Shown here: positions 4,056 through 42,453 of the stretch, in pieces
Numbering within the stretch: position 1 is the first letter of the stretch
How the letters are laid out: every line of letters begins with the position of its first letter
DNA from: Eledone cirrhosa
Lineage: Eukaryota
Direction of reading: 5' to 3'
Length of the DNA stretch: 64,000 nucleotides
NCBI GenBank assembly: GCA_964016885.1
Contig: OZ024752.1
Coordinates: 25,296,001-25,360,000 of the forward strand
Position numbers and translations under genes: made by a program
Notes under the pieces: generated by a model
Told to the model about the DNA's origin: nothing
The model's database searches: none
The model's input: the letters and a program-made list of their open reading frames with translations, nothing else

Positions 4056-5293
4056 TATGTGTATATATATGTATATATATATATATATGTGTGTATATGT
4101 ATATATATGTGTATGTGTATGTATATGTATATGTATGCGTATTAATTTTGATTTTTATTTGCATATAATTATATTATGCTATTGATGAAATACAATATCT
4201 GCTTTATGTATTGTATACCTAATTAACATATACTAATTAACGTATACTATTGAAATAAATATATAATTTTTAATTTAGTTAACATATAATTTATATGCTA
4301 CTACCGATGTAATACTTTATTTTATTTTTATTTGGGTTTCTTTTCCCTATTACTAAATTCATCTCCTAATATTGATACCATAACGTTATTAACTTTAATT
4401 TAGTTATAATGTAATTAATAATCTACTACTGTTTGACTTCATAATTTTGCTTCAAATATTATAAACCTAACTAATTTACACCTTGGAAATCAATATGTTG
4501 ACTATCTTTGGTTTAGTTAACATATGATTAATGGTATACTTTTTTATTTTGGGATGCATAGATTTCGTATTTCCTAGCACTGAAAATATGTAAGAACATA
4601 CATTGAATTAAGATACGGAAAATATTATATGTTTCTTGAAACATATATTTACTTTGATCCCCTTCTCCAAACCCCCCCTTTCCCCCATACTATTATCATC
4701 TGTTTTTGTAAGAGTATATGTATGAATATATGTGTAGGTGGGTGTCTATATAGGTTTTGGTATTTATTTCTAAATATAAAAATACATATATGAGCATGTA
4801 AATATGAATGTAAGATTGAGTGTGTATATATGATTGTACATACATGTGTATGTATATATATGTGTATATATATGTATTATATATGTATGTGTATGTGAAT
4901 GTGTGGTATGTATATGTGTATGTATATGTATATATGTGTTTGTATGTGTATGCTTGTATATAGGAATATATATATGTGTATATATGTATGTATATGTATA
5001 TGCGTGGTTGTATGTATGTGTATATGGGTTCTGTATATATTTGTATGTCTCTCTATTTATATGTTTATCTTCGTATCTATGTGATATATGTGTGTGTGTG
5101 TGCATATATGCATATGTATGTGTTTGTGTGTGTTTGTATGTGTGTGTGTATATATATATGTATTTGCGCACACTCACATACACATATATATATATATGTA
5201 TATGTGAGTGTGTATGTGTGTCTGTGTGTGTGTGTGTGTGTGTATGTGTATATATGTATGTATATGTATGTATGTATGTATGTGTATATATAT

Positions 5294-5329
<36 letters not shown>

Positions 5330-5798
5330 ATATAGGTGTCTATGTGTGAATATATGTCTTTATTCGTATGTGTGTATTTATGTATGTATATGTTTAGGTG
5401 TATGTATGTATGTGTATGTATGTGTGTGTATATATATATGTATATGTATATATGTATATGTGTGTATATATGTATATATATATATATATATATTATTCTT
5501 TATTATTATTGTAATATAACTTATGTGTATATGTGTATAAGTGAGGTTGTGTATGTATATATACTATATGTATATATAAGAGTAATGAAATATATATATA
5601 TATATATATATATATGTGCATGTCTGTTTTTTATGTGTGTGTATATATATATATGTATGTGTATATATGTGTGTATATATATATATATGTGTACGTGTGT
5701 GTATGTGGATATATATATATATGTATATATATATATACATGTGGGTGTTTGTATGTATATTTATGGTGGTATGAGTGTGGGGATATATATGTTTGTAT

Positions 5799-5830
<32 letters not shown>

Positions 5831-6993
5831 GAGTCTATGTGTGTGTGTATATATATGTATATATATGTATATATATATATATATATGTGTATGTGTGTAT
5901 GTGTTGCGCGTGAGTGTGTGTGTATTTATATCTTTTTATATGTGTATGTGTATGTTCGTGTAAATGTATGTGTGTGTATGACAGTATAGGTATGTGTGTA
6001 TGTATGTATGTGTAGATATCTCTATGTGCGCGTACATGTATGTATGTATATGTATATCTGTATGTGTATGTACATTTATTATATTTTATTGTTTTTATTT
6101 TTTTATTTTTCTTAATTTATAGATACATTTATATTAGGCTGTCTGGTCTGACAATCTAATACTGACCCCTCCCCCCCCCTCCCACCTAATTTCTGTATCT
6201 TGATCTTGAAATGTGTGTACCAGTGTTTTTATGTGAGTGACTTAATTTCTATTTGCTTATGATTTTATATCCACATATATAAATGTGAGTGGGGGAGTGT
6301 GTGTGTTTGTATGTTCGTGGTTATGTGTATATTTATGCATATACGCACATGTATGTGTGATTATACTGATATGTGTGAGTATGAAAAAAATATATTTATA
6401 TGCTTGACTCCATAAGTATCTTTGCGTATCTTATCAGCGCATTAAGCTTACAGAGATATTAACCTTGAAATTTTGTGTTTGCATCCATCTTTTTAGTATA
6501 CACATACAAATTATACACACATTATTGTAAAATATGTGTAAGGTTTTTGCATGTGTATACACACACCAAACTGCTTTTAACCCTTTGTGTTTTCATTGGT
6601 CAATTTTGAACTGATATTTTGAATTGTTGTTATTATCAATAAATATACTTCATTATTTCTGAAGACGGCGTATATATGAGTTAGGTATGTATATTTAATC
6701 TTGATAATTTGTATAATTTTGTATAATTTTGTACATAGATCTGTTAAATATGCATACCAATTATAACACATATGTGCCCTAGAAACGATCGTTAAATAGT
6801 GAACTTTTTTTGTTTAATATAAGGAATTGTTTGTTCATTATTTGTTTAATATTTTATCTTGACTCTGTATACCGTTTATCTTTCACCGAAAGTGGATTTT
6901 CATTACATCTCTTCTTTCCATGATATCCGGAATACATTGAGTTCTTCATACGGATTGGACACTACCGTAAACTCTTGGTAGATTTATCTACAT
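4056..6993 (+). repeat. 5' pseudo-LTR of PLE family A (~2.9 kb, microsatellite-rich)
   Basis: Near-identical to 10135-13072; the ORF track shows identical translations offset by 6079. Confidence 0.92.
6649..6803 (+). ncRNA. Type I hammerhead with long stem II (family A, 5' copy)
   Basis: uucauuauuu-CUGAAGA-[~115-nt hairpin: ggcguauau/auaugugcc, gguauguauauuuaa/uuaaauaugcauacc]-GAAA-cgaucg-UU-aaauagugaa. Confidence 0.8.
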
Positions 6994-7148
6994 AATTTTG
7001 CTCCTATTTTCACGGAAATATTCGTATTTTTGTACTGTATGTGTGTATTAATTTTATATTTATGTATAAACATATATATATATGTATGATTTTGTAAACC
7101 CATATACATTTAGTTGAGCTCTTTCAATTGTCCATCATCCATATCACA

Positions 7149-9583
7149 ATGGAAAAACAATATTTAGGAACCTCCTTAAAAAACATACCAATACCTTCTA
7201 AGGACGACTTCTTACTCCTTATGATTCAGAAAACTAATAATTTTATCAGAAGGGTTAGATGGAGAGCCTACCACTTCGATAGAAAATCTAAACAAGCAGA
7301 TCGGAAATATATGTATGATTTCAACACTTACAAGAATCCACCACACAACTTTTTACTTGAAGACTTCGAGAAAGACCTTTTTAATTTAATTAAACACCTC
7401 AAATTTAAAAAGTATAAATCCGTCTTTCAAAAGGACCTTGATTCTACCCTATTGGACCTAAAAAAGTCTAAAAAAATCCATGTCCACTCGGACAAAACTG
7501 GTAACTTGTATCATATGGATATTGAACATTATAATGAGTTCATATATAAAGAACTCAGAAAAAATTATAAAAAATCTAATAATGTGTCACTCACCAACAT
7601 CAACAACAAAACACACAACATAGTAAAAAAACTAAATATTGAAGATAGAACTGAACCTTTGGCATTGAAAAGTCCACACTTCAACCTGAAAGATCACAAA
7701 TCTAACTTTAACTCTAATCCTTCTATTAGACTTATATGTCCCTCCAAATCAGATATTGGAATAATTAGCAAAAAAATTTTAGATAGAGTCATCCCACAAA
7801 TAAGAAAATACGTTATTTTACCACTCTGGGAAAACACCTCCCAGGTAATTAATTGGTTTAAAAATATTAGGTGTAAATCTTCTGCTTCTTTCCTACAATT
7901 TGATATTACTATTCTTCTATATCACCCATACTCCTGAACAAAGCATTAATATTTGCTAAAAATAGATCTAATTTAACTTCGGATGACATTAACATTATTA
8001 CACATGCTAGACAAACACTTATTGAATTTCAGAATGAATACTGGACCAGAAACACTTACAGTAATCTTTTTGATATTACTATGGGTTCAAGCGATTCCGC
8101 CCAAATTACTGATCTTGTGGGCCTCTTTCTCCTTTTCAACATAAATGCCTCTTTTCCCCACCTCAAAGGTGGTTTATATCGTGATGACTGTCTTCTTCTT
8201 TCTAACAACCTTAGCCTTTCAGAAATCGAAAAAAACAAAAAGCATATTAGAACTTTCCTTAAAGACTATTATAATCTTAATATTACTTTTGAAAAAACAA
8301 GTAAAGTAGTAAATTTCCTAGATATAACTTTAGATTTAGCTACGGGTATATACCAACCTTACCATAAACCTAACCAAAACTTACATTACATACACTCACA
8401 ATCTAATCACCCTAAATCTATCCTTAAAAACCTCGCATATAATATATCACTTAGAATTTCTAACCTTTCTTCTAACCAAGATGTATTTGATAAAAATGCG
8501 ACCTTTTATAATGAAGCTCTAGATAGAAGTGGCCACAAAAATAGATTAGAGTATATACCTTCTACTAAAAATACTGAAAGCATACAGCATAATATTACCA
8601 ACAAACACCAAATGAAAAGTACACACCTAAATGCCACCCACAGTATACCCCAAAATACTAAATCTTCTAATATAAAGTATAGTAACCCTCAAAAAACTAC
8701 TCATCATACGACTATAATAAATATTAATAATAAAACTCCTAATAAAAAAGATAAAACACCTAAATCTACAAATATAACTAAAAATAGTTGTGGTGAGATC
8801 ATTAACATTAATCCTCCTAGTAAAAATCATGATACAACATATAAAAATAATAAAAATAATAAACAACATAGAAACCGTAATAGACGAGTTACTTGGTATA
8901 ATGCTCCTTTTAATTTACAAGTTAAGGATAATATTGCTAAAAAATTTTTTTATATCCTTGAGAAAAACTTCCCGCCAAACCACAAATACCATCAAATCTT
9001 AAATAGGTCTACAGTTAAATTCTCATACTCTACAACAAATAACATAAAACAAAATATAAGTGCATATAATGCATATAAATGTAAGAAAACCATAAGTATA
9101 CCACCAGTACATCAAATTAACAATAATATCTCCTCAAATACAGAATTAACGAAAGGATGTAACTGTAGAAACAAAACAAACTGCCCATTAAAAGGGAATT
9201 GTCTTGTTAACAACATAGTCTATAAATGTAATGTTAAAACTAAAGATTCTATTTGCTCATATATAGGTGCTACCTCTAACAATTTTAAGACAAGGTATAA
9301 TACCCACAAACATAGCTTTAAAAATGCCGCACTGGCTAATACAACATCTCTAGCAGAAAAAATCAATAGTTATAAAAATAAAAATATAAAATATGATTTG
9401 ACCTGGAGTGTGCTCAAAAGAGCCACCCCTTATCAAAATAATAGAAAGGAATGTAGATTATGTTCCCAGGAACTATTTGAAATAATGAAGTCTAGGGATA
9501 TCTTATTAAATAAAAGACAGGAATTAATTATATCGTGTAATCATAAACTAAAAAAAACATTTAAATATTATAAACCTAATTAA
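7149..9583 (+). pseudogene. PLE RT/GIY-YIG polyprotein (~810 aa) with a single frameshift near 7907
   Basis: SLKNIPIP...RRVRWRA, DKT, LKDHK, QFDI/YSSI, ITMGSSDS, LYRDD, NFLD, WYNAP, CNCRNKTNCPL, IVY...YIG. The frame from YSSISP (~7910) runs open into ORF 8081-9583. Confidence 0.9.
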
Positions 9584-10134: not shown

Positions 10135-11372
10135 TATGTGTATATATATGTATATATATATATATATGTGTGTATATGTATATATATGTGTATGTGTATG
10201 TATATGTATATGTATGCGTATTAATTTTGATTTTTATTTGCATATAATTATATTATGCTATTGATGAAATACAATATCTGCTTTATGTATTGTATACCTA
10301 ATTAACATATACTAATTAACGTATACTATTGAAATAAATATATAATTTTTAATTTAGTTAACATATAATTTATATGCTACTACCGATGTAATACTTTATT
10401 TTATTTTTATTTGGGTTTCTTTTCCCTATTACTAAATTCATCTCCTAATATTGATACCATAACGTTATTAACTTTAATTTAGTTATAATGTAATTAATAA
10501 TCTACTACTGTTTGACTTCATAATTTTGCTTCAAATATTATAAACCTAACTAATTTACACCTTGGAAATCAATATGTTGACTATCTTTGGTTTAGTTAAC
10601 ATATGATTAATGGTATACTTTTTTATTTTGGGATGCATAGATTTCGTATTTCCTAGCACTGAAAATATGTAAGAACATACATTGAATTAAGATACGGAAA
10701 ATATTATATGTTTCTTGAAACATATATTTACTTTGATCCCCTTCTCCAAACCCCCCCTTTCCCCCATACTATTATCATCTGTTTTTGTAAGAGTATATGT
10801 ATGAATATATGTGTAGGTGGGTGTCTATATAGGTTTTGGTATTTATTTCTAAATATAAAAATACATATATGAGCATGTAAATATGAATGTAAGATTGAGT
10901 GTGTATATATGATTGTACATACATGTGTATGTATATATATGTGTATATATATGTATTATATATGTATGTGTATGTGAATGTGTGGTATGTATATGTGTAT
11001 GTATATGTATATATGTGTTTGTATGTGTATGCTTGTATATAGGAATATATATATGTGTATATATGTATGTATATGTATATGCGTGGTTGTATGTATGTGT
11101 ATATGGGTTCTGTATATATTTGTATGTCTCTCTATTTATATGTTTATCTTCGTATCTATGTGATATATGTGTGTGTGTGTGCATATATGCATATGTATGT
11201 GTTTGTGTGTGTTTGTATGTGTGTGTGTATATATATATGTATTTGCGCACACTCACATACACATATATATATATATGTATATGTGAGTGTGTATGTGTGT
11301 CTGTGTGTGTGTGTGTGTGTGTATGTGTATATATGTATGTATATGTATGTATGTATGTATGTGTATATATAT

Positions 11373-11408
<36 letters not shown>

Positions 11409-11879
11409 ATATAGGTGTCTATGTGTGAATATATGTCTTTATTCGTATGTGTGTATTTATGTATGTATATGTTTAGGTGTATGTATGTATGTGTATGTAT
11501 GTGTGTGTATATATATATGTATATGTATATATGTATATGTGTGTATATATGTATATATATATATATATATATATTATTCTTTATTATTATTGTAATATAA
11601 CTTATGTGTATATGTGTATAAGTGAGGTTGTGTATGTATATATACTATATGTATATATAAGAGTAATGAAATATATATATATATATATATATATATGTGC
11701 ATGTCTGTTTTTTATGTGTGTGTATATATATATATGTATGTGTATATATGTGTGTATATATATATATATGTGTACGTGTGTGTATGTGGATATATATATA
11801 TATGTATATATATATATACATGTGGGTGTTTGTATGTATATTTATGGTGGTATGAGTGTGGGGATATATATGTTTGTAT

Positions 11880-11911
<32 letters not shown>

Positions 11912-13067
11912 GAGTCTATGTGTGTGTGTATATATATGTATATATATGTATATATATATATATATATGTGTATGTGTGTATGTGTTGCGCGTGAGTGTGT
12001 GTGTATTTATATCTTTTTATATGTGTATGTGTATGTTCGTGTAAATGTATGTGTGTGTATGACAGTATAGGTATGTGTGTATGTATGTATGTGTAGATAT
12101 CTCTATGTGCGCGTACATGTATGTATGTATATGTATATCTGTATGTGTATGTACATTTATTATATTTTATTGTTTTTATTTTTTTATTTTTCTTAATTTA
12201 TAGATACATTTATATTAGGCTGTCTGGTCTGACAATCTAATACTGACCCCTCCCCCCCCCTCCCACCTAATTTCTGTATCTTGATCTTGAAATGTGTGTA
12301 CCAGTGTTTTTATGTGAGTGACTTAATTTCTATTTGCTTATGATTTTATATCCACATATATAAATGTGAGTGGGGGAGTGTGTGTGTTTGTATGTTCGTG
12401 GTTATGTGTATATTTATGCATATACGCACATGTATGTGTGATTATACTGATATGTGTGAGTATGAAAAAAATATATTTATATGCTTGACTCCATAAGTAT
12501 CTTTGCGTATCTTATCAGCGCATTAAGCTTACAGAGATATTAACCTTGAAATTTTGTTTGCATCCATCTTTTTAGTATACACATACAAATTATACACACA
12601 TTATTGTAAAATATGTGTAAGGTTTTTGCATGTGTATACACACACCAAACTGCTTTTAACCCTTTGTGTTTTCATTGGTCAATTTTGAACTGATATTTTG
12701 AATTGTTGTTATTATCAATAAATATACTTCATTATTTCTGAAGACGGCGTATATATGAGTTAGGTATGTATATTTAATCTTGATAATTTGTATAATTTTG
12801 TATAATTTTGTACATAGATCTGTTAAATATGCATACCAATTATAACACATATGTGCCCTAGAAACGATCGTTAAATAGTGAACTTTTTTTGTTTAATATA
12901 AGGAATTGTTTGTTCATTATTTGTTTAATATTTTATCTTGACTCTGTATACCGTTTATCTTTCACCGAAAGTGGATTTTCATTACATCTCTTCTTTCCAT
13001 GATATCCGGAATACATTGAGTTCTTCATACGGATTGGACACTACCGTAAACTCTTGGTAGATTTATC

Positions 13068-13072
<5 letters not shown>
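10135..13072 (+). repeat. 3' pseudo-LTR of PLE family A
   Basis: Direct repeat of 4056-6993; ends gatttatctac|atatata. Confidence 0.92.
12728..12882 (+). ncRNA. Type I hammerhead (family A, 3' copy)
   Basis: Identical to 6649-6803. Confidence 0.8.
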
Positions 13073-13577: not shown

Positions 13578-14330
<753 letters not shown>

Positions 14331-14359
14331 CACGGGTGTGTATAATTGTGTAAAGAAGA

Positions 14360-14745
14360 TTATATTAATAAGAGGAATTACAACTTTGTCTGATTTACTC
14401 GTTTCATTTACATTCCTTTAAAATTTATAATGGTATTATAATGAAATAGTATGATAGAATATTAAATTCTAAGTGTTAATTGAATAAGTACTTTCATGCT
14501 TTCGCAATCTTCAGGTTCATAATGGTGACAGTCATGTTTGCAATTTTCAACTGTTAAAATATGCAAACTTGACTGTCACCACATATTATGAACCTGAAGA
14601 TTGCGAAAGCATGAAAGTACTTGTTCAATTAACACTTAGAATTTAATATTCTATCAGACTATTTCATTATAATACCATTATAAATTTAAAAGGATTGTAA
14701 ATAAAACGAGTAAATCAGACAAAGTTGAAATTCCTCTTATTAATA
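14360..14745. mobile_element. Palindromic foldback element (family N) with hammerheads on both strands
   Basis: ~190-bp arms inverted about caactgtt (~14550). A second copy lies at 18241-18482 in the opposite orientation. Confidence 0.8.
14589..14627 (+). ncRNA. Minimal hammerhead (family N); other copies 14481-14519(-), 18322-18360(-), 18430-18468(+)
   Basis: ugaac-CUGAAGA-u ugc gaaa gca u-GAAA-guac-UU-guuca. Confidence 0.85.
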
Positions 14746-14956: not shown

Positions 14957-15606
14957 CATATATATATATACGTATATATATACATATATATATATACATA
15001 TATATATTTATTAAAATAACAGATTAAAGTTTAAGCAAAGAATCGCTGCTTTCACCCTTAACGGGATCTTCTGGAACTAACAAAGTCAATCTGTAAACGC
15101 AGAACTGGATATTTCAAAAAAGTTGCAACCGGAGGAAGACAGGAAGACGATACTTTGGTATGTGGTAATGTTCGCTGGCAAAGAACGGGAAAAAACGAAT
15201 AATACGTCATTAAAAGGAGCGGTGAAAAACAATTACGCTCAAAGACAGAACCACGTTTAGGTATAAAAGAGGTCGTAGACTAATGTTCTCTTAGGTGGTG
15301 CATAGACGTTCTCTGGCAATGAACGAAAAAACGAAGATAATAAGTCATATGTGGAGCGTGGAGAACAATAGCACGCAAAGACAAAACCACGTAAATGGTA
15401 TAGCAGAAGTCGTAGACTAAAATTCTAACTAGGAGACCAAATGAATCTCCGCTACAGAGTTAAAAACAAAGTAAATAAATACAATACAGAAGTAATAGAA
15501 ATAAATAAATACATACACGCAAACAAATACGTACATACACAAGCATACGCAAAACCTTACCATAGGTTTACAACCACGCACATATAAATATGTGTGTGTG
15601 TGTGTA

Positions 15607-16534
15607 TGTTGTATTACCCGTATAGAAAGCCGAATGATACGCTTAATTACATAAGTAAGCATTCCAACCATCCTGCCAGCATAACCAAGAACCTGGTAAG
15701 AAACGTTTCGTTGAGGCTTTCCCGTCTTTCCACCAACGAGCGCATTTTCAACGACCATTCCACTTATTACAATGAAGCTCTTGCTCGAAGTGGATTTGTC
15801 GATAAGGTAGCATATACAGAGTACGAAAATAGACCTAGAAGAAATAGATCCCGTCGCATTTGTTGGTTTAACGCACCATATAACATGGAGGTGGCCACAC
15901 CATTAGCTAAGATCTTTCTTTCCCTTATTACGAAGCATTTTCCCCCTACACATAAATATAGTAAAATATTTAATAGAAATACTATTAAAATTTCTTACTC
16001 TACGACTCCTAACCTTGCACATAACATCACAGCTTCAACTTTAGCTAAACTACCTAGCCGTAGGAACACGTGCAACCCTGTAGGTAGTACTAACTGTAAT
16101 TGTAGGATCGGGCTGATTGCCCCCTATCCGGGAAATGCCTCTCTAGTAACATTGTCTACATATGTAAGGTTGTAACACCCACGTCCTGTAGGGCCTACAT
16201 AGGGTTAACCGCCAATAGTTTCAAGCAGCGTCTTTACATGCATACCCATTCTTTTCGTTACACTCTAAGAAGCAATATGACGTCACTTTCAGCTTATATC
16301 TGCAGTCTAAAAGACAACCACGCCCAATATAAGTTACACTGGGAGATCCTAGCTAGGGCTAGATCGTATAACGGAAATAAAAGACCATGTGACCTCTGGT
16401 CCGCTGAGGCCCTGGAAATACTCTACGCCACAGACCACATCTTAAACAAAAAATCTGAGGCAATTTCGGCTTGTAAACATAAATTGCACAAAACTTTCCT
16501 GTATTACAGCCCCACGTTATACCCTAACGGATAG
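15607..16534 (+). pseudogene. PLE thumb + GIY-YIG remnant, frameshifted near 16107
   Basis: [22 protein letters not shown], then a shifted frame with YIG and CDL; matches 28368-29432. Confidence 0.88.
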
Positions 16535-17458
16535 TACGATCTATGCGTGGATATTTTACGTCCTGATGTGGAAGATAAGTATATGTTTTATTTATTCCTT
16601 TACTTATTTGCATAGGTAAGTATATATTACCTGTATGTTTTGTGAAGGTTGTATACCTTCTCGTACGTATATTTAATTGTTATGGCGTATAATTTTTAAA
16701 TATTCTGGTATTTAGGGTTTGGCTATGTGTATACGGGAGTTTTGCGTCTGCGTGAGTATGCAGGTTCGTACGTATGGTGGGTGTGTGCATATGTGTACTT
16801 CTTGTTTTAGTTGACTTACGTCTCCGAACATTCGTGTATTTATATGTAGGTATGTGTGTGCGCTTGTTATATACGTATTTATTTACTTATATACGTTTAT
16901 ATAATTATTTATTTATTTGTACACTAGCATACACACACACACATATTTATATGTGCGCGATTGTATACCTATGGTAAGGTTTCGCGTATGCTTGTGTATG
17001 TACGTATTTGTTTGCGTGTATGTATTTATTTATTTCTATTACTTCTGTATTGTATTTATTTACTTTGTTTTTAACTCTGTAGCGGAGATTCATTTGGTCT
17101 CCTAGTTAGAATTTTAGTCTACGACTTCTGCTATACCATTTACGTGGTTTTGTCTTTGCGTGCTATTGTTCTCCACGCTCCACATATGACTTATTATCTT
17201 CGTGTTTTCGTTCATTGCCAGAGAACGTCTCTATGCACCACCTAAGAGAACATTAGTCTACGACCTCTTTTATACCTAAACGTGGTTCTGTCTTTGCGCG
17301 TAATTGTTTTTCACCGCTCCTTTTAATGACGTATTATTCGTTTTTTCCCATTCTTTGCCAGCGAACGTTTCCACGAACCAAAGTATCGTCTTCCTGTCTT
17401 CCTCCGGTTGCAACGTTTTTTGAAATATCCAGTTCTGCGTTTACAGATTGACTTTGTT

Positions 17459-17509
17459 AGTTTCAGAAGATCCCGTTAAGGGTGAAAGCAGCGATTCTTT
17501 GCTTAAATT
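17459..17509 (+). ncRNA. Hammerhead-like fold with U4A core (family D); copies 15028-15078(-), 27407-27457(-)
   Basis: aguuu-CAGAAGA-u ccc guuaa ggg u-GAAA-gca[gcgauucuu]ugc-UU-aaauu (aaacu in the other copies). Confidence 0.6.
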
Positions 17510-17673
17510 TTAATCTGTTATTTTAATAAATATTTGCTCTACGGTTCTTATATATTTGATATATATTTATCCTTATCGAGCCCTCTTTGGATTTTAGTCT
17601 TCAATTTTATTATTATTACTATACATATATGTATACATATATATATGTATATATATATATGTATATATATATG

Positions 17674-18068: not shown

Positions 18069-18637
18069 TTATAACTTTCTGGTTGGTTGGTTGGTTCCAC
18101 AACCAGATAGTTGTTTATATATTGTCATAGTTCTTTCGTCACACACTCTGTGACTTCTTCAGTGACTGGGGATTCCTTTCTTTGTTTCTGTGCCTCTCCT
18201 TTGTTCTGTCCTACGCCATTTTGCTTCTGTGTGTGTGACACGTTTTATTTACAATCCTTTAAAATTTATAATGGTATTATAATGAAATAGTCTGATAGAA
18301 TATTAGATTCTAAGTGTTAATTGAACAAGTACTTTCATGCTTTCGCAATCTTCAGGTTCATAATATGTGGTGACAGTCAAGTTTGCAATTTTCAACAGTT
18401 GAAAATTGCAAACTTGACTGTCACCATTATGAACCTGAAGATTGCGAAAGCATGAAAGTACTTGTTCAATTAACACTTAGAAGCAAAATGGCGTACGACA
18501 GAACAAAGGAGAGGCACAGAAACAAAGAAAGGAATCCCCAGTCACTGAAGAGGTCACAGAGTGTGTGACGAAAGAACTATGACAATATATAAACAACTAT
18601 CTGGTTGTGGAACCAACCAACCAACCAGAAAGTTATA
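18068..18637. mobile_element. Nested foldback: family O inverted arms enclosing the family N palindrome
   Basis: 18068-18228 is the reverse complement of 18478-18637; inner palindrome at 18241-18482. Confidence 0.8.
18541..18583 (+). ncRNA. Minimal hammerhead (family O); inverted copy 18124-18166(-)
   Basis: guca-CUGAAGA-g gucac..gugac-GAAA-gaac-UA-ugac. Confidence 0.75.
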
Positions 18638-18864
18638 AATTTATTATAAATTTATTATAATAAATTGAAGTGAAAGCAACTGGTGCGTGTGTTTCTTATT
18701 GGCAACATGACCCTCCCTAAGTATAACAATAAATATATATATATATATATACATAAATATATATACATAAATATATATATATATATACATAAATATATAT
18801 ATACATATACATATATATATATATACACATATATACATACATATATATATATATATATACATAT

Positions 18865-18973
<109 letters not shown>

Positions 18974-19293
18974 CATAAATACATATATATATATACATAT
19001 ATATATATATACATAAATATAAAGAATTAGTATATCTACCAACATATGTATACAGATGCATACCTATGCTAGCAAATATATATGTTTTGTCTTAGTAACT
19101 TTGTGGTTCTATGCAAGGGGATGCATAAAAATTATATGAAAGACGTAAAATAAGAAAATTATGAAAATTAACTTACTTACTAAAATTTCAATGTCCTGGA
19201 ATTTAGTCCCCGCTCGCTTTTTTCCATCCACTGAATTATTTTTAAATAAGATCCCTGTGTCCACGCATTGACTGGGCGCTTAGCTGATAATAG

Positions 19294-19374
19294 ACTCCCT
19301 GATGACGTAAGGATTCTCTATGGGTACGTTACGTTACCATATTTATTCCCTTACAGAAACTAATTAGTTGGAGT
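19294..19374 (+). ncRNA. Type I hammerhead (family E)
   Basis: acucc-CUGAUGA-c guaagg...ccuuac a-GAAA-cuaauuag-UU-ggagu. Confidence 0.85.
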
Positions 19375-19820
19375 GAAATTTTAGTAAGTAAGTTAATTTT
19401 CATAATTTTCTTATTTTACGTCTTTCATATAATTGTTCTGCATCCCCTTGCATCAAACCACAAAGTTACTAAGACAAGACATATATATTTGCTAGCATAG
19501 GTATGCATCTGTATACATATGTTGGTAGATATACTAATTCTTTATATATATTTCCAAATTATTTGTTGAGAAAAACTTGCTGAAATTACTACTATGGTTT
19601 ATGGTAGTAGTTAGGCTCTTGTCTTATTAGCACGCCACTCCTCACTGATTAACCTCAGTGTCACGTGATTGATTCTTTTGAATTTGCCACTGACCAAGTA
19701 GGCGGTGAATTTTTTCAATGTCCTGGAATTTAGTCCCCGCTCGCTTTTTTCCATCCACTGAATTATTTTTATATAAGTTCCCTGTGTCCACGCATTGCCT
19801 GGGTGCTTAGCTGAGAATAG

Positions 19821-19901
19821 ACTCCCTGATGACGTAAGGATTCTCTATGGGTACGTTACGTAACCATATTTATTCCCTTACAGAAACTAATTAGTTGGAG
19901 T
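19821..19901 (+). ncRNA. Type I hammerhead (family E, second tandem copy); also 24575-24656(+), 38352-38432(-), and 23996-24076(-) with one A lost from GAAA
   Basis: Same fold, 527 nt downstream of the first copy. Confidence 0.85.
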
Positions 19902-19962
19902 GAAATTTTAGTAAGTAAGTTAATTTTCATAATTTTCTTATTTTACGTCTTTCATATACATA

Positions 19963-21255: not shown

Positions 21256-23285
21256 TTAACTGTATACTTTGTGAAAAGTTCTATGGAATTTATGCAGGCA
21301 GATAGAAAACAAATCTGAGCGTCTATTTATTATAGATTCTAGGTTAGAGATAATGGTAAACTTTTCATTTAGGCAGAGATTACAGATTTTAGATAGAGAG
21401 CTGTTCAAGTATGAAGATGCAGAAGAAATCTTTTTCCAAAAGATGTTATATTTAATGTTTTTGTCTTTTAAGGACCATATGAGTTCTGAGAGAGCAGTGT
21501 TAGTTCTTTTAAGTTTGTATTTGAAAGATGAATGATGATTATAGAGACGAGCTTTAAAAGAGGTGGAAGTGGAGCCAAAATAGGTGAAGGAATTGGTGCT
21601 AGTTATAATTTTACATTCATAAATTAAGTTTTTATCGAGGCAATGGTTGTTGAGAGGACATTTATTTTTAATGCGGCAGTTGCAATTAGAGAGATTATTA
21701 ATGAGTGATCTAGTGTTATCTATAGAAGGAATTGGATTGGAGAAGTTGTTTCCGATAGGAATAATAGGAATAATAGTTTCTTGATTTAGAGTTGGATTAT
21801 GAACATTTAGCGAAGTTGTGTTTGACGTTGTATTTGGGTTTACAGAAGTTAGCCTAGGGTTTACAATGACGTCGGGAGTACTATTACTGTTATTATGAAA
21901 TTCAATATTGGAAGGAAGAGATTTAGTATTTAATATTTTGTTGTTGTGTTTAGAGATGATGTTGGAAATATTGGAGGATGTAGAATACGAAAATTTGATG
22001 GTGTGTTTGTTAAATATTTTACTATAGATATGTGAGGGAGGGAAGCATTTATTTAAGGCACTAAAAAATAATTTAGGAATATTGTTATTAATAGAGATGG
22101 AGAAAGGAGCATTATACCAGATTATGTTTTTGTATCTAGGTCTTTTATTAAAATTATTGGAATGGTCATGATTAATTATTCTACTGTAAATTTTCCTAGA
22201 ATTTGTTTCTTTATTATATTTGATTTTATCTGGATAGCCGGCTTTAGAAAGTGCGTTATTATAGTAATTGGCGTTAGCATCAAAGATGTTTTTATTAGAA
22301 GATATGTTAGATATTCTATTTCCAATATTATTAACTATAGCATTCTTGATATTGGTAGGATGGTTAGATTTAAAGTTAACATAATTAAGATTCTCATTGT
22401 TTTTATGGTAAGGGTAATATAGGCCAGTGTCAAGATTAAGAGATACATCCAAGAAATTAGCTAGCTCAATTTTTAGGTTATGTTGGTTAAAGAGATTACG
22501 TATATTGTTCTTAATAATATTAAGTTTAACTATATTGCAATTTAGGATAGTAAAGAGTCCATCGTCACGATAAATTCCACCGCGAAGTTGAGGAATTTTC
22601 CGACTCAAAGAGTTCAAAATAAAGATACCAATTAAATCAGTCAATTGGGATGAATCGGATGCTCCCATTGTGATGTCGAAGTTGTTAGAGGTATCGGCTC
22701 TGGTCCAATATTCGTTGTTGAACTCTAGGGTGGTTTTACGTGCGGTGAGGATGATGTGAAGTTCATCTGTGGTGATGTCAGAATATTTAAGTGCGAAAGA
22801 TAGAGCATTATTGAGAAGTGAAGGCGAAATGGAGGAATAGTAGCTGGCAATATCGAATTGAATAAATTTTAGTTTGTTTTTATTATCCAATTTGTTGAAC
22901 CAGCCAATCACTTCAGAAGTACCAAACCATAAATTTAGGTTTAAAGAAGAGCAATTAGAACTAACCTGTGGGATAATCCCATCCAAGATGGCTTTACTAA
23001 CAACCCCCAGATCAGATTTAGAGGGGGCGATTAATCTAACAGGTAGTTCAGTGCGAAAATTGTTTTTGTGATCCTTGAGATTTATCCTCGGAGTTCTTGG
23101 GAGGAATGGTTCGGTCTTTTTTTCAATGCCAAGTTTTCACATAATCTCATAGGCTTCAAGGTTTATGCATTCTAAATTTTCATGGTTGGTTTTACGATAC
23201 TTTTTCCTAAGTTCCTTTAGCATAAGGTTGTTATAATTATCCTTGGAAATACCATATAGGTTATTGGTTTTGTCAGTTTTGCTTT
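21256..23285 (-). pseudogene. PLE RT/GIY-YIG ORF; 576 aa open, N-terminus truncated and disrupted
   Basis: FIQFDIASYYSSI, ITMGASDS, IYRDD, WYNAP, CNCRIKNKCPL, LIY..YFG. Upstream DKTNNLY and LKDHK motifs, with a break near 23140. Confidence 0.9.
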
Positions 23286-23411: not shown

Positions 23412-23741
23412 TAGAGATATATATATACATATATATATATACATAAATATATATATATATACATAAATATATATATATATATATACATAAATATATATAT
23501 ATATATATATACATATACATAAATATATATATATATATATATACATAAATATATATATATATAGAATTAGTATATCTACCAATATATGTATACAGATGTA
23601 TACCCATGCTAGCAAATATATACCTCTGTGGTTCTATGCAAGGGGATGCAGAACAATTATATGAAATACATAAAATAAGAAAATTTTAAAATTAACTTAC
23701 TAAAATTTTCACTCCAACTAATTAGTTTCTGTATTATTACA

Positions 23742-23781
<40 letters not shown>

Positions 23782-23798: not shown

Positions 23799-24891
<1,093 letters not shown>

Positions 24892-24913: not shown

Positions 24914-24993
<80 letters not shown>

Positions 24994-25220
24994 TGTATTA
25001 AACAACATAAGGCAATTATTCCATTTACCAGTGGTTTCTTAAAAGCAAAAATTTTGCTTTCAATCATCAGAATGAAAAAATCCTGGTCTGTTTATTGAAT
25101 TTGGATTTTGAAAACAAAAATGCAATCTATATGAAAGTGAGGCTGGAGAAAAGAGAAGTAAAGGAAAAATTAAATAAAAACACACATGCAAACACTCACA
25201 CACACACACACACACACACA

Positions 25221-25276
<56 letters not shown>

Positions 25277-25600
25277 GGTTTTTTTTCATTCTGATGATTG
25301 AAGGCAAACATTTTTTGCTTTTAAGAAACCACTGGTGAATGGAATAATTACCTTATGTTGTTTATTACATTACTATATATATGTATAAGTATATTTTGTA
25401 GTTATATAAGGTTCATATGAATTATCTAAGATTGAGTTTTACACACACACATATATGTGTATATATATATATGTGTGTGTGTGTGTGTTTCTACTTGGTT
25501 GTGCGTGTTTGTGATATGTACGTGTTTGTATGTGTATAATTGTATAGCTATGTATGTGTGTGTGTGTATGTATATATATATGTGTGTATATGTGTGTGTG

Positions 25601-25643
<43 letters not shown>

Positions 25644-25719
25644 CGAAGGAAATGTGGTAAGGAACCAGGTGGACCATAACGCACCAAAGTACTCAATACT
25701 TTAGGTAGTAGAGTGGGTA

Positions 25720-25828
25720 ATAGGAACCAGTAAGACTCCGACAGCTGAGCTCAAGCCGTTTCGACGGCTAATTCTGCAGAATTAGCCGTCGAAACGGCTT
25801 GAGCTCAGCTGTCGGGGTCTTACTGGTT

Positions 25829-25833
<5 letters not shown>
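25720..25833. repeat. 114-bp spacerless palindrome (one mismatch) inserted in (TA)n
   Basis: Centre ctg|cag at 25776/25777; ataggaaccagtaagac... pairs with ...gtcttactggttcctat. Confidence 0.9.
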
Positions 25834-25909
<76 letters not shown>

Positions 25910-26351
25910 ATATGTATATGTGTGTGTATATATGTATATGTGTGTGTGTGTTTGTGTATGTATTTGTGTATGCGTATGTATGTGTTTATGTATTTGTATA
26001 TCTATATTTATGTGTGAGAATGTGTGTATGTATTTACTTTTTCGTACGTATGTGTACGTTCATTTGTGTGTATTGGTTACCACGCGTGTTTGTTCATTTA
26101 TTCGTCGCTTGTATCGCTGTCAACTGTATAATAGTTTTTATTCTTTTATTTTTTATATATATTTTTCTTATATTTATTTACGTGTGTGAATATATAGAGG
26201 TGTGTGCATATTTTTCTAATTTTGTACATGCATATGTATGCATTTATGTATGTGTATGTATGTACGTGTGTATATAGGTATGACTGTGTGCATGTATGTA
26301 TGTATGTATGTATATGTATGTGTGTATGGCTATGTATGTGTATATGTATGC

Positions 26352-26383
<32 letters not shown>

Positions 26384-26598
26384 TTATATTTATATATATA
26401 TATATATGTGTGTATATATGTGTGTGGTTGTATATATGTATGTGTATGTATGGATGTGTTGATATTTTTATGTGCGTATGTATGTATGTGTATATGTATG
26501 TGTATGTGTGTATTTATATAGACATATATACGTGTATATGTGTGTGTGTATGTATGAGTGTATGTATATATATATATATATATGTATGTGTATGTATG

Positions 26599-26687
<89 letters not shown>

Positions 26688-26798
26688 ATGTGTGTTTTTA
26701 TTTTATTTTTCCTTTCCTTCTTCTTTCTCCAGCCTCACTTTCATATAGATTGCATTTTAGTTTTTAAAATCCAAATTCAATAAACAGACCAGGATTTT

Positions 26799-26856
26799 TT
26801 CATTCTGATGATTGAAAGCAAAATTTTTTGCTTTTCAGAAACCACTGGTAAATGGA
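26799..26856 (+). ncRNA. Type I hammerhead (family F); copies 25020-25076(-), 25285-25343 (GUG site), 42689-42746 (CCGAUGA)
   Basis: uucauu-CUGAUGA-uugaaagcaaaa/uuuugcuuuuca-GAAA-cc acu gg-UA-aaugga. Confidence 0.85.
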
Positions 26857-27009
26857 ATAATTGCCTTATGTTGTTTAATACATAACTATTAAGCTCTGTT
26901 ACCTACATAGAGCACTCTTTTTTCCTGGACTTTTCCGACGGAATTACTTCATTTACAGATATATATATATATATATATACATAAATATATATATATATAT
27001 ATACATATG

Positions 27010-27280: not shown

Positions 27281-29432
27281 TTATTAAAATAATAATAATA
27301 ATAATAATAAAATTGAAGACTAAAATCCAAAGGGGGCTCGATAAGGAAAATATATATCAAATATATAAGAACCGTAGAGCAAATATTTATTAAAATAACA
27401 GATTAAAGTTTAAGCAAAGAATCGCTGCTTTCACCCTTAACGGGATCTTCTGAAACTAACAAAGTCAATCTGTAAACGCAGAACTGGATATTTCAAAAAA
27501 CGTTGCTACCGGAGGAAGACAGGAAGACCATACTTTGGTTCGTGGTAACGTTCGCTGGCAAAGAACGGGAAAAAACGAATAATACGTCATTAATAGGAGC
27601 GGTGAAAAACAATTACGCGCAACGACAAAACCACGTTTATGGTATAAAAGAGGTCGTAGACTAATGTTCTCTTAGGTGGTGCATAGAGACGTTCTCTGGC
27701 AATGAACGAAAAAACGAAGATAATAAGTCATATGTGGAGCGTGGAGAACAATAGCACGCAAAGACAAAACCACGTAAATGGTATAGCAGAAATCGTAGAC
27801 TTAAATTCTAACTAGGAGACCAAATGAATCTCCGCTACAGAGTTAAGAACAAATTAAATAAATACAATACAGAAGTAATAGGAACAAATAAATACATACA
27901 CGCAAACAGATACGTACATACACAAGCATACGCAAAACCTTACCAAGGGTATACAAAACCACGCAAATATAAATATGTGTGCGTGTGTATGCTTGTGTAC
28001 AAATAAATAAATTATATAAACGTATATAAGTAAATAAATACGTATATAACAAGCGCACACGCACACCTACATATAAATACACGAATGTTCGGAGACGTAA
28101 GTCAACTAAAACAAGTAGTACACATATACACACACCCACCATACGTACGAACCAGCACACTCACGCGGACGCAAAACTCCCGTATACACATACCAGAATA
28201 TGTAAAAATTATACGCTATAACAGTCAAATATACGTACGAGAAGGTATACATACCTTCACAAAACATACGGGTAATATATACTTACCTATGCAAATAAGT
28301 AAAGGAATAAACAAAACATATACTTAGCTCCCACATCAAGACGTAAAAAATCCACGTATAGATCGTGCTATCCGTTAGGGTATAACGTGGGGCTGTAATA
28401 CAGGAAAGTTTTGTGCAATTTATGTTTACAAGCCGAAATTACCTCAGATTCTTTGTTTAAGATGTGGTCTGTAGCGTAGAGTATTTCCAGGGCCTCAGCG
28501 GCGCAGAGGTCACATGGTCTTTTATTTCCGTTATACGATCTAGCCCTAGCTAGGATCTCCCAGTGTAACTTATATTGGGTGTGGTTGTCTTTTAGACTCC
28601 AGATATAAGCTGAAAGTGACGTCATATTCCTTCTTAGAGGGTAACGAAAAGAATGAGTATGCATGTAAAGACGCTGCTTGAAACTATTGGCGATTAACAC
28701 TATGTAGGCCATACGGGACGTGGGTGTTACAACCTTACATTTGTAGACAATGTTACTAGAGAGGCATTTCCCGGATAGGGGGCAATCAGCCCGATTCCTA
28801 CAATTACAGTTAGTACTACCTACAGGGTTGCACGTGTTCCTACGGCTAGGTAGTTTAGCTAAATTTGAAGCTGTGATGTTATGTGCAAGGTTAGGAGTCG
28901 TAGAGTAAGACATTTTAATAGTATTTCTATTAAAAATGTTACTATATTTATGTGTAGGGGGAAAATGCTTCGTAATAAGGGAAAAAAAGATCTTAGCTAA
29001 CGGTGTGGCCACCTCCATATTATATGGTGGGTTATACCAACAAATGCGACGGGATCTATTTCTTCTAGGTCTATTTTCGTACTCTGTATATGCTACCTTA
29101 TCGACAAATCCACTTCGAGCAAGATCTTCATTGTAATAAGTGGAATGGTCGTTGAAAATACGCTCGTTGGTGGAAAGACGGGAAAGCCTCAACGAAACGT
29201 TTCTTACCAGGTTCTTGGTTATGCTGGCAGGATGGTTGGAATGCTTACTTATGTAATTAAGCGTATCATTCGGCTTTCTATACGGGTAATACAACCCATT
29301 CAATAAATTGAGGGTAACGTCGAGGTAATTAACGACCGAGAGATTGGCCTGAACCTGTATAGAGAGGTTGAAGCCTTTAAAGAAGGCTGTGAGTTCTTTT
29401 CTGAACCTGTCGCAAGCACGAGGTCCGCACTT
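27281..29432 (-). mobile_element. 5'-truncated PLE family D, second copy
   Basis: Reverse complement of 15607-17620 with extra 5' RT sequence; (TA)n on both sides. Confidence 0.9.
28368..29432 (-). pseudogene. PLE RT C-terminus + GIY-YIG (355 codons, no native start)
   Basis: [31 protein letters not shown]; the upstream part of ORF 28368-30134 is microsatellite read-through. Confidence 0.88.
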
Positions 29433-31128: not shown

Positions 31129-32524
31129 TATATATATATACATAAATATATACGATATTAAACAAATGGAAACTATATTTATAAAACCATATTTATTTCA
31201 TTATACATATTTCGGGGATACCATATTAAATATATGGCATGCCTTCTTCAGATAAAATACAATATATAAACAGTTTTATAAATAATTTTGACGTACCATA
31301 AATATTGAGCAACCGTTATGTAGAAAGCCGGTTTGGTAGTGAGATGTTTATAAATATTTAGTGTTAAGCACAGTTAAAAAGAAAGGCGGAGAAAAAGAAG
31401 AAATGTATGTAAAGAAAAACAGAGAGAAATAGAGAGAGATAGGGGAGAGAGAAATAGTGAGGAGGTGAAAAAATAGAGGCAGCTGAATGTAACAGATGAA
31501 TAATAATAATTCATCATACAAATTGAGAGATTTAGGAGGGAGGGCGTACTGTAATTATTTAGTTATAGTGTTAAGGACAGTTAGGGAGGAGACGGAGAGA
31601 AATAAAAATGAAGAGAAAACAGAGAGAGAGAAAGATAGAGGTGGGGGAACAAAAGAAAGAGGTAGACCAAATAATAATAATTATATAGGGGGAGGTGAAA
31701 ATCAAGAGAGAAATAGGAGAGAAATAAGAGATAAAAATTGAGAGGCAGAGTCAAAACAATAGATACATAGACTTCATCATATATAAAGAGGGAGGAGAAG
31801 AAAGAGCTATATCTAGAGAGAGGGATGATAGATTTACATCTTTACGTTATGTCCTATCAATTTGAATTATCAATTCATATGAACTGGGTAATATAATGTA
31901 AATATCAATATTCATGAATGAGACATAGATATATAATGTGTGAAAATAATTTTGCTCAATAATGACCATATGTTTAGTTTAAAATTCTGAGGTCGATGTA
32001 CCAAAAACTGAGATAAAACTTCAAAAAAAATACGGAAATATATAAGTATATACATACACATGCATATGCTCTTTCCGGAAAAGGAAAGAAAGAGAGAAAG
32101 AGAAGGTCATCTCAAGTTCTAGTTGATATTATAGACATACCCATGATTTTACGTGATCAACTCTGTAATTTCTTGTTTCACAAAAAAAATTTTTTTCCTT
32201 GTGTTATAAAAGATTTCACTATATATATATACATAAAAAATAAAAAATAAACGATTAATATTCTTGCCCTCACATACATGATTATCGTTCATGTATAGAA
32301 TATTATGCATATCTGTAACATATCCAGAACTATACCCACACATACATATAGATATATATGTATGCACACATACAGGTACATGGACAGATAAAATATACTC
32401 TGTAATCATTCCATATGCATATTAATACATATGGCCTTTGTACAGAGACTACCAGATATCAATATATCAGCACAGAAATATCAAAACGTTAAAATATTTT
32501 CATCAATATTATAATGAAGTATTA

Positions 32525-33315
32525 CAGTATTACAATGAAGCGTTAGCTAGAGCAGGATTTTTAATTACGGTAACAACTTTAACAACTATAATAGAAAACA
32601 TTACAATAGTTCCAAAAGCCGGAAAAGAAATAGAACTAGAAATATAATATGGTTTGCCCCCCCCCCCCTTTCTCACTAAATATTAAAACCCACATTGCTA
32701 AACTATTTTTTAATGCTCTTGACAAACGCTTCCCGAGAACACATAAATATCACTCAATTTTTAATAGACATACTATAAAATTAACTTACTCGTCCACCAA
32801 AAATTTAGCACAAAATATTAACAGAATAAATAATAGGAATCTAAAACCTAACCAAAATAGCGATAATAACCAAAACAATATTCAATTAAACAACTGTAAC
32901 TGTAGAAATAAATCTAAATGTCCGTTAAATAACAATTGCTTAGTTAAAAATATATTATACAATTGTAATGTTAAAACTAACTTAAATTCTTTTAACTATG
33001 TTGGTTCCACCTCGACAGAATTTAGACTTCGCTACAATAATCATAAGAATTCTTTCACAGATCCAAACAAAAAATCTTCAATCAGGCTTACTCTGGCAAC
33101 TTAAACATGATAACGTTGGGTATTCGATGTTTTGGAATATTGTCTCAAGAGGGATTCCTTTTAATTCCTCATCTGAGACATGTGACCTCTGTGTGGAGCA
33201 TATATTCTTTATATTAAAATCCAAAAATTCCCTTAATTTACGGACAAATTTATTCAGTTGCTGCAGACATAGATTGAACTCAACGTTTAAATATAAATAT
33301 AAATTTAAAATGTAG
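32525..33315 (+). pseudogene. PLE thumb/GIY-YIG remnant
   Basis: YYNEALARAG, HKYHSIFNRHTIKL, CNCRNKSKCPL, ILY..YVG, CDLC; several frameshifts. Confidence 0.85.
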
Positions 33316-34314
33316 TATAATTAATTAAGATATTTAATTAATGTATGAAACCTGACGATAAATCTTTCGATTCCTTCAACTTTTTCTTTTAAACCTTCTT
33401 CATAAATATAAACTAATGATGTAATTAAACTACTCTAAAATGTAGATGCTCCCAATCTATTGAATAAATTTTACGCAAGATAAACTTCTATACTAAATAT
33501 AAGAGCATCCGTAGAACAACAGGGTCTCCTAAATCCTTTAAATGATTTCTGCTAAATAAGTTTTGTTGAATAATTTTTGGTTTTTTGTTTGCTTTTTGAT
33601 TCTGATTGCTTCTAATGAACTTGGCAATATATTGTCAGATAAATTGGAAGGGTAGATTTCTGTGGTTAATATAAGAAGCATACTGTGTTTTTTGTGGCCC
33701 GAGATACTCTAGGGAGTGATGAAAATATTTTAACGTTTTGTAAATCTATCATCCCTCTCTCTAGATATAGCTCTTTCTTCTCCTCCCTCTTTATATATGA
33801 TGAAGTCTATGTATCTGTTGTTTTGACTCTGCCTCTCAAGTTTCTCTCTTATTTCTCTCCTATTTCTCTCTTGATTTTCACCTCCCCCTATATAATTATT
33901 ATTATTTGGTCTACCTCTTTCTTTTGTTCCCCCCACATCTATCTTTCTCTCTCTCTGTTTTCTCTTCATTTTTTATTTCTCTCCGTCTCCTCCCTAACTG
34001 TCCTTAACACTATAACTAAATAATTACAGTACTCCCTCCTAAATCTCTCAATTTGTATGATGAATTATTATTATTCATCTGTTACCTTCAGCTGCCTCTC
34101 TTTTTTCACCTCCTCACTATTTCTCTCTCCCCTATCTCTCTCTATTTCTCTCTGTTTTTCTTTACATACATTTCTTCTTTTTCTCCGTCTTTCTTTATAA
34201 CTGTGCTTAACACTAAATATTTATAAACATCTCACTACCAAACCGGCTTCCTACATAACGGTTGCTCAATATTTATGGTATGTCAAAATTATTTATAAAA
34301 CTGTTTATATATTG

Positions 34315-34380
34315 TATTTTATCTGAAGAAGGCATGCCATATATTTAATATGGTATCCCCGAAATATGTATAATGAAATA
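34315..34380 (+). ncRNA. Type I hammerhead (family C)
   Basis: uauuuuau-CUGAAGA-aggcaugccauau/auaugguaucccc-GAAA-uaugua-UA-augaaaua. Confidence 0.8.
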
Positions 34381-34549
34381 AATATGGTTTTATAAATATA
34401 GTTTCCATTTGTTTAATATCGTATATCTACTCCAAAACTTGTCGAGTGCTTTATATCAGTTATAAAATATTTACTTGTTGTAACCCAACAATTTTAAATA
34501 AAACTTTTGCATAAATATATATATATATACATAAATATATATATATCTA

Positions 34550-38135: not shown

Positions 38136-38185
38136 CATAAATATATATATACATATATATATATATACATAAATATATATATAGA

Positions 38186-38625
38186 GAGAGAATTAGTATA
38201 TCTACCAACATATGTATACAGATTCATACCTATGCTAGCAAATATATAGGTTTAGTCTTAGTAACTTTGTAGTTCAATGCAAGGGGATGCAGAACAATTA
38301 TATGAAAGACGTAAAGTAAGAGAATTATGAAAATTGACTTACTAAAATTTCACTCCAACTAATTAGTTTCTGTAAGGGAATAAATATGGTTACGTAACGT
38401 AATCATAGAGAAACCTTATGTCATCAGGGAGTCTATTCTCAGCTAAGTTCCCAGGCAATGCGTGGACACAAGGAACTCATATAAAAATATGTCACGTGAT
38501 TGATTCTTTCGAATTTGACACTGACCAAGTAGGCAGTGAATTTTTTCAATGTCCTGGAATTTAGTCCCCGCTCGCTTTTTTCCATCCATTGAATTATTTT
38601 TATATGAGTTCCTTGTGTCCACGCA
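38186..38625. mobile_element. Family E foldback fragment joined to family F
   Basis: Minus piece 38186-38487, plus piece 38488-38625. Confidence 0.8.
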
Positions 38626-42134: not shown

Positions 42135-42351
42135 CTTATATGTTTTGTCAGCTGGGTTGAAAAATAGTTTCTCTAAGGGGTTGTCATTATATCTATCGTC
42201 TTGTTTACTTCACCGTTATTGTTGTTGTTATATGTATGTGTATGTATGGATGTGTTGATATTTATGTGTGTATGTATGTATGTGTATATGTATGTGTATG
42301 TGTGTATATATATACACATATATATGTGTATATGTGTGCGTGTATGTATGA

Positions 42352-42435
<84 letters not shown>

Positions 42436-42453
42436 ATGTATGCATTTGTGTGT

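Follow-up and report, generated by a model that had tools for sequence, protein, structure and literature searches.

A 527-nt hammerhead repeat without coding capacity in Eledone cirrhosa, probably mobilized by PLEs

A 64,000-nt stretch of Eledone cirrhosa DNA (referred to throughout as the window) carries a 527-nt repeat unit, free of open reading frames and bounded by two predicted hammerhead ribozyme cuts, that is very probably a non-autonomous, PLE-mobilized ribozyme repeat of the animal non-LTR retrozyme kind. The unit, here called unit U, spans window positions 19370-19896 on the plus strand, between successive predicted ribozyme cuts, and U coordinates count from 19370; mapping and folding identify it as a complete ORF-free unit, cut to cut, and a predicted monomer RNA. 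At the sequence level it has the tandem motifs, lack of coding, size, low GC content (35%), self-pairing, and dispersal that characterize retrozymes. A mobile non-coding family had been proposed in a preliminary description of this DNA, and the proposal is borne out in part by the multiple copies, the PLE integration footprints, and the ORF-free full cycles in two independent window copies.

RESULTS

Hammerhead motifs and coding content of the unit

A descriptor search finds complete type I hammerhead cores at 19299 and 19826 of the locus containing the unit (locus A). The first motif occupies 19294-19374 on the plus strand (CTGATGA core at 19299-19305, GAAA at 19356-19359, predicted cut after 19369), and the second has the same architecture at 19821-19901 on the plus strand (predicted cut after 19896), with exactly 527 nt between the cuts at GTT/GGAGT (the slash marks the cut). 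As the preliminary description stated, the two complete motifs have no ORF between them: in the doubled unit, no ATG-initiated ORF exceeds 47 aa in any of the six frames, or 30 aa on the ribozyme strand. A search for RT/EN remnants in unit U by tblastn with 13 window RT/EN ORF pieces returned noise only (E values 0.39 to 0.99).

Both motifs have a 5-bp helix I, the CTGATGA and GAAA boxes, and a perfectly palindromic helix III, and their helix II is extended by a 50-nt insert and opens with a C.A apposition followed by G-C; a mismatch or wobble at this position is also seen in other window hammerhead motifs. PLE ribozymes are marked by a short helix I, a long helix II, an extra base past the core, and a palindromic helix III; they are thought to act as dimers and cleave poorly in vitro (PMC4209133). 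Judged from these sequence features, the motifs of unit U are of the PLE type. An extra A precedes the GAAA box in locus A, which is absent from the PLE ribozyme description in the part of PMC4209133 available to us. Rfam gave no match at gathering score over the whole window, and at E of at most 10 gave eight chance-level matches to hairpin families, none of them hammerhead; because Rfam misses the motif, the hammerhead call rests on the manual descriptor and the conserved core.

Four copies in (TA)n tracts

Unit U is found at four separate window loci (A, B, C, and D), in (TA)n tracts and in both orientations. Low-stringency nucleotide comparison with the rest of the 64-kb window gave only TA-array noise among the matches listed, and exact-pattern scans found no loci in metagenome contigs and none in viral contigs. 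Two intact motifs are present only in locus A among these four copies; the motif in the plus arm of copy B has a helix I mismatch, and in that of copy D the first G of helix II is missing.

Locus A reads, in order, (TA)n, an inverted arm running from U182 back to U5, a forward arm comprising U344-527, U1-527, and U1-62, and again (TA)n; the direct array amounts to 1.46 units. The inverted 5' arm (19013-19190, minus strand) has (TA)n on its left and overlaps the forward arm by 5 nt (TTTCA). It is followed by the first partial unit (19186-19369, plus strand), which extends up to the first ribozyme cut, and the complete unit is followed by a PLE-type tail (19897-19958, plus strand) leading into (TA)n. 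The sequence does return to its own start as claimed, 19186-19431 recurring at 19713-19958; the anatomy differs from that first reading in that 19013-19190 is an inverted copy of U5-182, outside the direct repeat. This 170-nt inverted 5' arm, like the plus arm of copy B, had been overlooked at first reading. The repeated parts of A differ at 6 of 246 sites (direct) and 6 of 178 sites (inverted), consistent with one insertion event followed by decay. Three listed of the six differences are near-private to the first repeat, with 99 to 100% of the depth of contig set X1 (described below) carrying the other letter, which fits units that were identical at insertion.

Copy B consists of two opposed arms between (TA)n tracts. 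Its minus arm (23943-24463) runs from U36 through U527 to U62, a 494-nt cycle plus 27 nt, and its plus arm (24465-24709) comprises U344-527 and U1-62 and ends in (TA)n. The earlier account of 23947-24464 as an independent, complete minus-strand monomer holds for the full cycle, and needs correction in two respects: the single internal deletion is 33 bp (39 being the sum of gap columns), and the ribozyme is damaged, one A of its GAAA box being gone (GAAA to GAA), so that it is not intact. The different permutation ascribed to B stems from a different 5' truncation, and the 3' ends of A and B coincide at U~62. A 4-bp duplication common to the three arms of A is absent in B, C, and D, and the arms of B are 95.4% alike to each other and 85 to 88% to A; A and B are therefore separate insertions from separate templates.

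The further pieces reported at 23563 and 38186 map to copies at 23553-23733 and 38179-38625. The former, copy C (minus strand), runs from U510 across the junction to U182 and then into (TA)n. Copy D has a minus arm (38179-38489) running from U395 across the junction to U182 and then (TA)n, and a plus arm (38490-38625, U290-425) joined to part of a different ribozyme family. Over the four copies, the cut junction is crossed six times, in five of the seven arms.

We note that the right ends of C and D run into this other hammerhead family (at 23734-23747 and 38623-38692), of which copies lie at 24989-25259, 25281-25373, 26583-26953, and 42412-42848. In this family (TG)n lies upstream of the ribozyme and the tail stops at either of two points, about 36 or 108 nt beyond the cut; no ORF is seen beside its copies at 24989-26953 and 42412-42848. 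The 14 nt at the non-(TA)n end of C are identical to the tail end of this family; the piece has 8 window matches at one mismatch or fewer against 0.58 expected, and five of the other seven are in that family or a variant of it. Copy D joins the family's helix II. C and D may each have arisen as a chimera of two RNAs at insertion, or later deletions may have produced these joints.

Fixed 3' ends and PLE footprints

All six target-joined ends of unit U arms lie at U~62 (three) or U~180-182 (three), both of which are internal TA runs, and meet (TA)n there, as do the Hydra-type PLE copies of the window; the 5' ends are variable, in contrast to these fixed TA-joined 3' ends. Twenty X1 contigs pass from the unit into (TA)n after 19551, supporting the second end site. 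Random circular permutation is rejected, the TA-joined ends being fixed at U~62 and U~182, and with the ends fixed at these putative priming sites in TA runs, permutation speaks less strongly for a circle than first claimed.

The footprint of unit U thus comprises (TA)n targets, a tail of about 60 nt past the cut, inverted 5' arms, and copies longer than one unit. Direct and inverted arms and a tail have been described for PLEs (PMC8557442), and unit U has the insertion features of autonomous Hydra elements, namely (TA)n insertion, tail, partial tandem, and inverted 5' copy. Unlike an autonomous Hydra-clade PLE, with its single ORF encoding RT plus GIY-YIG at the C terminus, it has no RT-EN ORF. 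Three other window elements have a like inverted 5' arm (15008-17622, 31140-34514, and 43678-45103). A relaxed scan of the window gives 17 ribozyme-like motifs, four of them from the unit U family; seven of the 17 have tails of 36 to 67 nt into (TA)n, including four outside the family (36 to 53 nt).

The forward arms of A (19186) and B (24465) start alike, at U344-348, just past a hairpin and T-run; either the RT stalls at this point or a transcript begins there. The inverted arm of A stops at U5 and one X1 contig switches strand at 19375; both positions adjoin the cut site, which would fit copying of cleaved 5' ends.

Copies beyond the window

Four of ten listed sequencing runs, of DNA or of unrecorded kind, were placed on one full permutation of the unit (19250-19776) at 80% likeness. 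X1 consists of contigs from organism A, of unrecorded kind, which may be the window's own source; X8 consists of RAD reads from the same organism; X4 carries a second organism label (organism B); and X5, a single low-depth contig, was left out of the evidence. X1 yielded 2,941 matched contigs (638 at 99% or above, 987 at 95 to 99%, 998 at 90 to 95%, and 318 below 90%), X4 56 contigs, and X8 7,210 reads. The whole cycle is tiled by listed overlapping pieces in X1 (4 to 24 differences) and X4 (1 to 22 differences), and no single piece spans the whole unit among the contigs listed. Summed X1 contig depth along the unit ranges from about 6,400 to 778,000, which is not a copy number, and a joint that goes back 525 at the chosen permutation edge shows contiguity of the cycle only, not circularity.

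Among the X8 RAD reads, 95% continue into unlike sequence, and the loose ends listed include one after 19307 (396 reads, agreement 0.54). Because of these run-on reads, this loose end, and the lack of a spanning piece among the contigs listed, an ORF-bearing relative may exist beyond the window.

Strand-specific folding and a complement of the cut junction

The monomer of A is predicted to be 63% paired. Circular fold z scores on the ribozyme strand are -6.6 (A) and -8.4 (B), versus -1.1 and -2.2 on the other strand (40 shuffles each); two non-coding stretches of a neighboring PLE give -2.2 and +0.6. Closing the circle brings no gain in stability, the fold of A having -136.7 kcal/mol as a circle versus -140.2 kcal/mol as a linear molecule. 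The 43 substitutions between A and B break 8 pairs versus 16.6 expected (P = 0.0015), and none of 150 random substitution sets folded as well as the real one (1 of 150 in the reverse direction). Two of the 140 consensus pairs are altered on both sides between A and B. A long internal hairpin (U115-164, 19484-19533, plus strand) is kept in copy B via one-sided changes, and structure appears, from these predictions, to be conserved across the middle of the unit. Such pair-keeping is partly expected from decay of a well-paired ancestor, but the strand asymmetry is not so explained.

A 16-nt segment at U267-282 (19636-19651, plus strand) is predicted to pair with both sides of the cut, forming a duplex of 14 bp in total that is interrupted by a small loop where the scissile bond lies, and is a candidate ligation splint or ribozyme lock. 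The duplex beats 1,997 of 2,000 shuffles in A and 1,966 of 2,000 in B, figures that are optimistic because the pairing was tested after it had been noticed. A comparable complement was absent in all five tests on other window ribozyme junctions. Junction pairing dominates in the predicted circle of A (probability 0.79 to 0.99) and falls to 0.04 to 0.05 in B, which has a deletion close by. The segment could hold the cut ends in register for ligation and, in a circle, keep the ribozyme locked; it could equally shield a linear template from cutting.

Neighboring PLEs and other elements in the window

The 64 kb contain about eight Hydra-type PLE ORFs or parts of ORFs, divergent and in several cases frameshifted (7098-9583, 15588-16175, 21256-23136, 28368-29430, 32640-33104, 35286-37205, 53652-55566, and 60449-61144). 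The one adjoining the unit U copies (21256-23136, minus strand; 626 aa stop to stop) is an example of the kind of helper that we consider. Of the motifs regarded as diagnostic of Hydra (PMC8557442), RWK/RWR is found in two, DKT in three, and CxCx5C in five of the 13 window ORF pieces. Pfam gave no match for any of three Hydra-type ORFs tested and a weak RT match for a fourth ORF, and a homologue search with ORF 21256-23136 returned 34 proteins, none named. The 3' ends of the Hydra elements in the window are long and non-coding. No sequence shared between unit U and any PLE was found in the 64-kb window, and derivation of unit U from the adjacent Hydra copy is rejected for lack of similarity. 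A PLE of another type, with a DKS motif, a GIY-YIG-like C-terminal end, and a weak RVT_1 match, lies at 39775-42209 (minus strand).

A Hydra-type PLE is the likeliest helper of unit U, and the PLE at 39775-42209 represents another possible helper class. The helper clade is not pinned, because no window PLE matches unit U and Naiad elements, too, target (TA)n (PMC8557442).

The window has several other repeats. A second ORF-free tandem at 50563-51814 (minus strand) has two hammerhead motifs with a spacing of 691 nt (predicted to cut at 51534 and 50843), a 98% repeat, an internal (TA)n tract, a fold z score of -3.2, and no junction complement, and its sequence marks it as a second, retrozyme-like family. 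Two more ribozyme-bearing ends occur in TA arrays as short copies arranged head to head (14229-14742 and 18238-18638; 13578-13954). There is also a LINE-type element whose frames resemble endonuclease and RT, in two copies that are about 90% alike (6-1943 and 47581-50298), and a duplication of about 2.9 kb, 99.8% identical (4108-6991 and 10187-13070), that is either recent or an assembly artifact.

DISCUSSION

The mobilization that we propose for unit U is copying in trans by a Hydra-type PLE from a predicted circular monomer RNA, a complete route that we put forward tentatively, its probability falling a little short of even. A multi-unit copy such as locus A would be transcribed, and two ribozymes would pair via the palindromic helix III to release a 527-nt monomer at GUU/GGAGU. 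The U267-282 segment, by its predicted pairing, would bring the 5' and 3' ends together and block re-cutting, and a host ligase would close the circle, as suggested by other retrozymes. The PLE protein would nick (TA)n, with reverse transcription presumably beginning at a UA run at U~60 or U~178; ends at these positions are seen in the sequence, as is copying across the junction, up to about 1.5 rounds in A. A second cDNA from the other strand may then give the inverted arm, with joining at short overlaps. The strand-specific fold of A and B and the keeping of pairs between them are counted as RNA-level constraint in favor of this explanation. A more elaborate version, in which a Hydra-type RT starts at UA runs that match the target, rolls around a splint-locked circle, and at times links the cDNAs of two different parasite RNAs (as in C and D), is rather unlikely.

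The template could instead be a linear RNA, read through tandem units from an internal promoter near U344-348 and left uncut, with the same PLE helper; the ribozyme would then be slow, or locked by U267-282, and circles would be a by-product. This is possible and fits nearly as well as the circle, although we lean against it. It accounts equally for every junction crossing, and the complement upstream of each second ribozyme could protect the template. In the anole PLE, the one that has been reconstituted, uncut RNA is the dominant template and ribozyme mutants still insert (PMC11167929). Priming in that system took place at a site without homology to its target (PMC11167929), and the TA match at the unit U ends may be Hydra-specific behavior or merely blurred boundaries. 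The common start of the A and B forward arms at U344-348 would suit a fixed linear 5' end, but involves two of seven arms and may be chance. Against the linear template, the minus arm of B (U36) and the plus arm of D (U290) extend upstream of U344, so that a linear template requires multi-unit transcripts; position 19713 is not among the six listed of 11 begin or end peaks in the run contigs; and the stop of the A inverted arm at U5 and the X1 strand switch at 19375 both lie beside the cut.

It is quite improbable that unit U is instead a pseudo-LTR, made up of 3' UTR, ribozyme, and 5' leader, that belongs to an autonomous PLE outside the window, with the copies truncated or internally deleted. 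The ribozyme is PLE-type, the window Hydra elements do have long non-coding 3' ends, and the run-on RAD reads, the 396-read loose end, and the absence of a spanning piece among the listed contigs would all fit. Yet A and B, about 85% alike, each close the cycle without an ORF, neither the unit ORF scan nor tblastn of the window pieces reveals an ORF remnant, contigs of other copies tile the cycle under two organism labels, and structure is kept across the middle of the unit. Still less credible, to the point of being highly improbable, is local amplification of a solo PLE end as DNA (unequal crossover, satellite-like) with no RNA intermediate of its own. Such a DNA-level route has been proposed for vertebrate retrozyme tandems (Li et al. 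2026, bioRxiv 10.64898/2026.07.22.740005), and the unit U copies do lie in unstable (TA)n arrays, but they are dispersed over four separate window loci in both orientations, their TA-joined 3' ends are fixed and their 5' ends vary, inverted arms are present, and the folding is strand-specific.

Unit U resembles animal non-LTR retrozymes in its ORF-free tandem unit, one type I hammerhead per unit, low GC content, self-paired RNA, and the presence of PLEs. Its 527 nt lie within the 51 to 972 bp range of Li et al. (bioRxiv 10.64898/2026.07.22.740005) and above the 150 to 450 bp of Cervera & de la Pena 2020 (PMC7229834). It differs from known retrozymes in ribozyme subtype, junction complement, and clarity of PLE footprints: its ribozyme is PLE-type (5-bp helix I and long helix II), whereas the 2020 examples are canonical (6-bp helix I, 4-bp helix II, and loop contacts); a junction complement is exceptional in animal retrozymes, occurring in some from mussel (PMC7229834); and clear PLE integration footprints set it apart. 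The ribozyme subtype is a difference rather than grounds for exclusion, because the 2026 definition admits both canonical and minimal motifs (bioRxiv 10.64898/2026.07.22.740005). Circles have been demonstrated for retrozymes of coral, mussel, and axolotl (PMC7229834), which, unlike unit U, are of the canonical type, and eight of nine Xenopus retrozyme dimers did not cut, one being active (bioRxiv 10.64898/2026.07.22.740005). These points count against the circle route, as do the poor in vitro cleavage by PLE ribozymes, the weak junction pairing in B, and the lack of a folding gain on closing the circle.

Hydra clade PLEs share with unit U (TA)n targeting, a near-3' ribozyme, a tail, partial tandems, and inverted 5' arms (PMC8557442), but have an RT-EN ORF, and unit U matches no window Hydra ends. 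Non-autonomous PLEs with head-to-tail insertions are known in Chlamydomonas, and Chlamys PLEs such as MRC1 are likewise ORF-free PLE dependants with pLTRs and head-to-tail insertions (Craig et al. 2021, PMC8557442); they share 3' ends with known autonomous families and mostly have no hammerheads, whereas the 64-kb window shows no autonomous partner with ends similar to unit U. In plant LTR retrozymes and hammerhead viroids, a complementary segment is likewise predicted to block the ribozyme in the circle (PMC7229834); the type III ribozymes, LTRs, PBS/PPT, and Gypsy helper of plant LTR retrozymes have no counterpart in unit U. Among the papers listed for retrozymes or hammerheads together with cephalopods or octopus, Craig et al. 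2021 was the sole entry.

Unit U is not a new kind of system, because its class, its size range, and a mollusc (mussel) presence have already been published. PLE mobilization of animal retrozymes was described as a "strong candidate" idea in 2020 (PMC7229834), and the 2026 preprint, which derives retrozymes from PLE ends, draws the PLE link from co-occurrence and phylogeny, with limited life-cycle evidence (bioRxiv 10.64898/2026.07.22.740005). Unit U carries the integration footprint itself, in its fixed TA-primed ends, tail, inverted arms, and copies of more than one unit; together with the many Hydra-type ORFs nearby, this makes it a compact substrate for discriminating between circular and linear templates and for identifying the helper. 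If true, the splint-locked circle would be direct genomic evidence for the presumed mobilization of animal retrozyme circles by PLEs.
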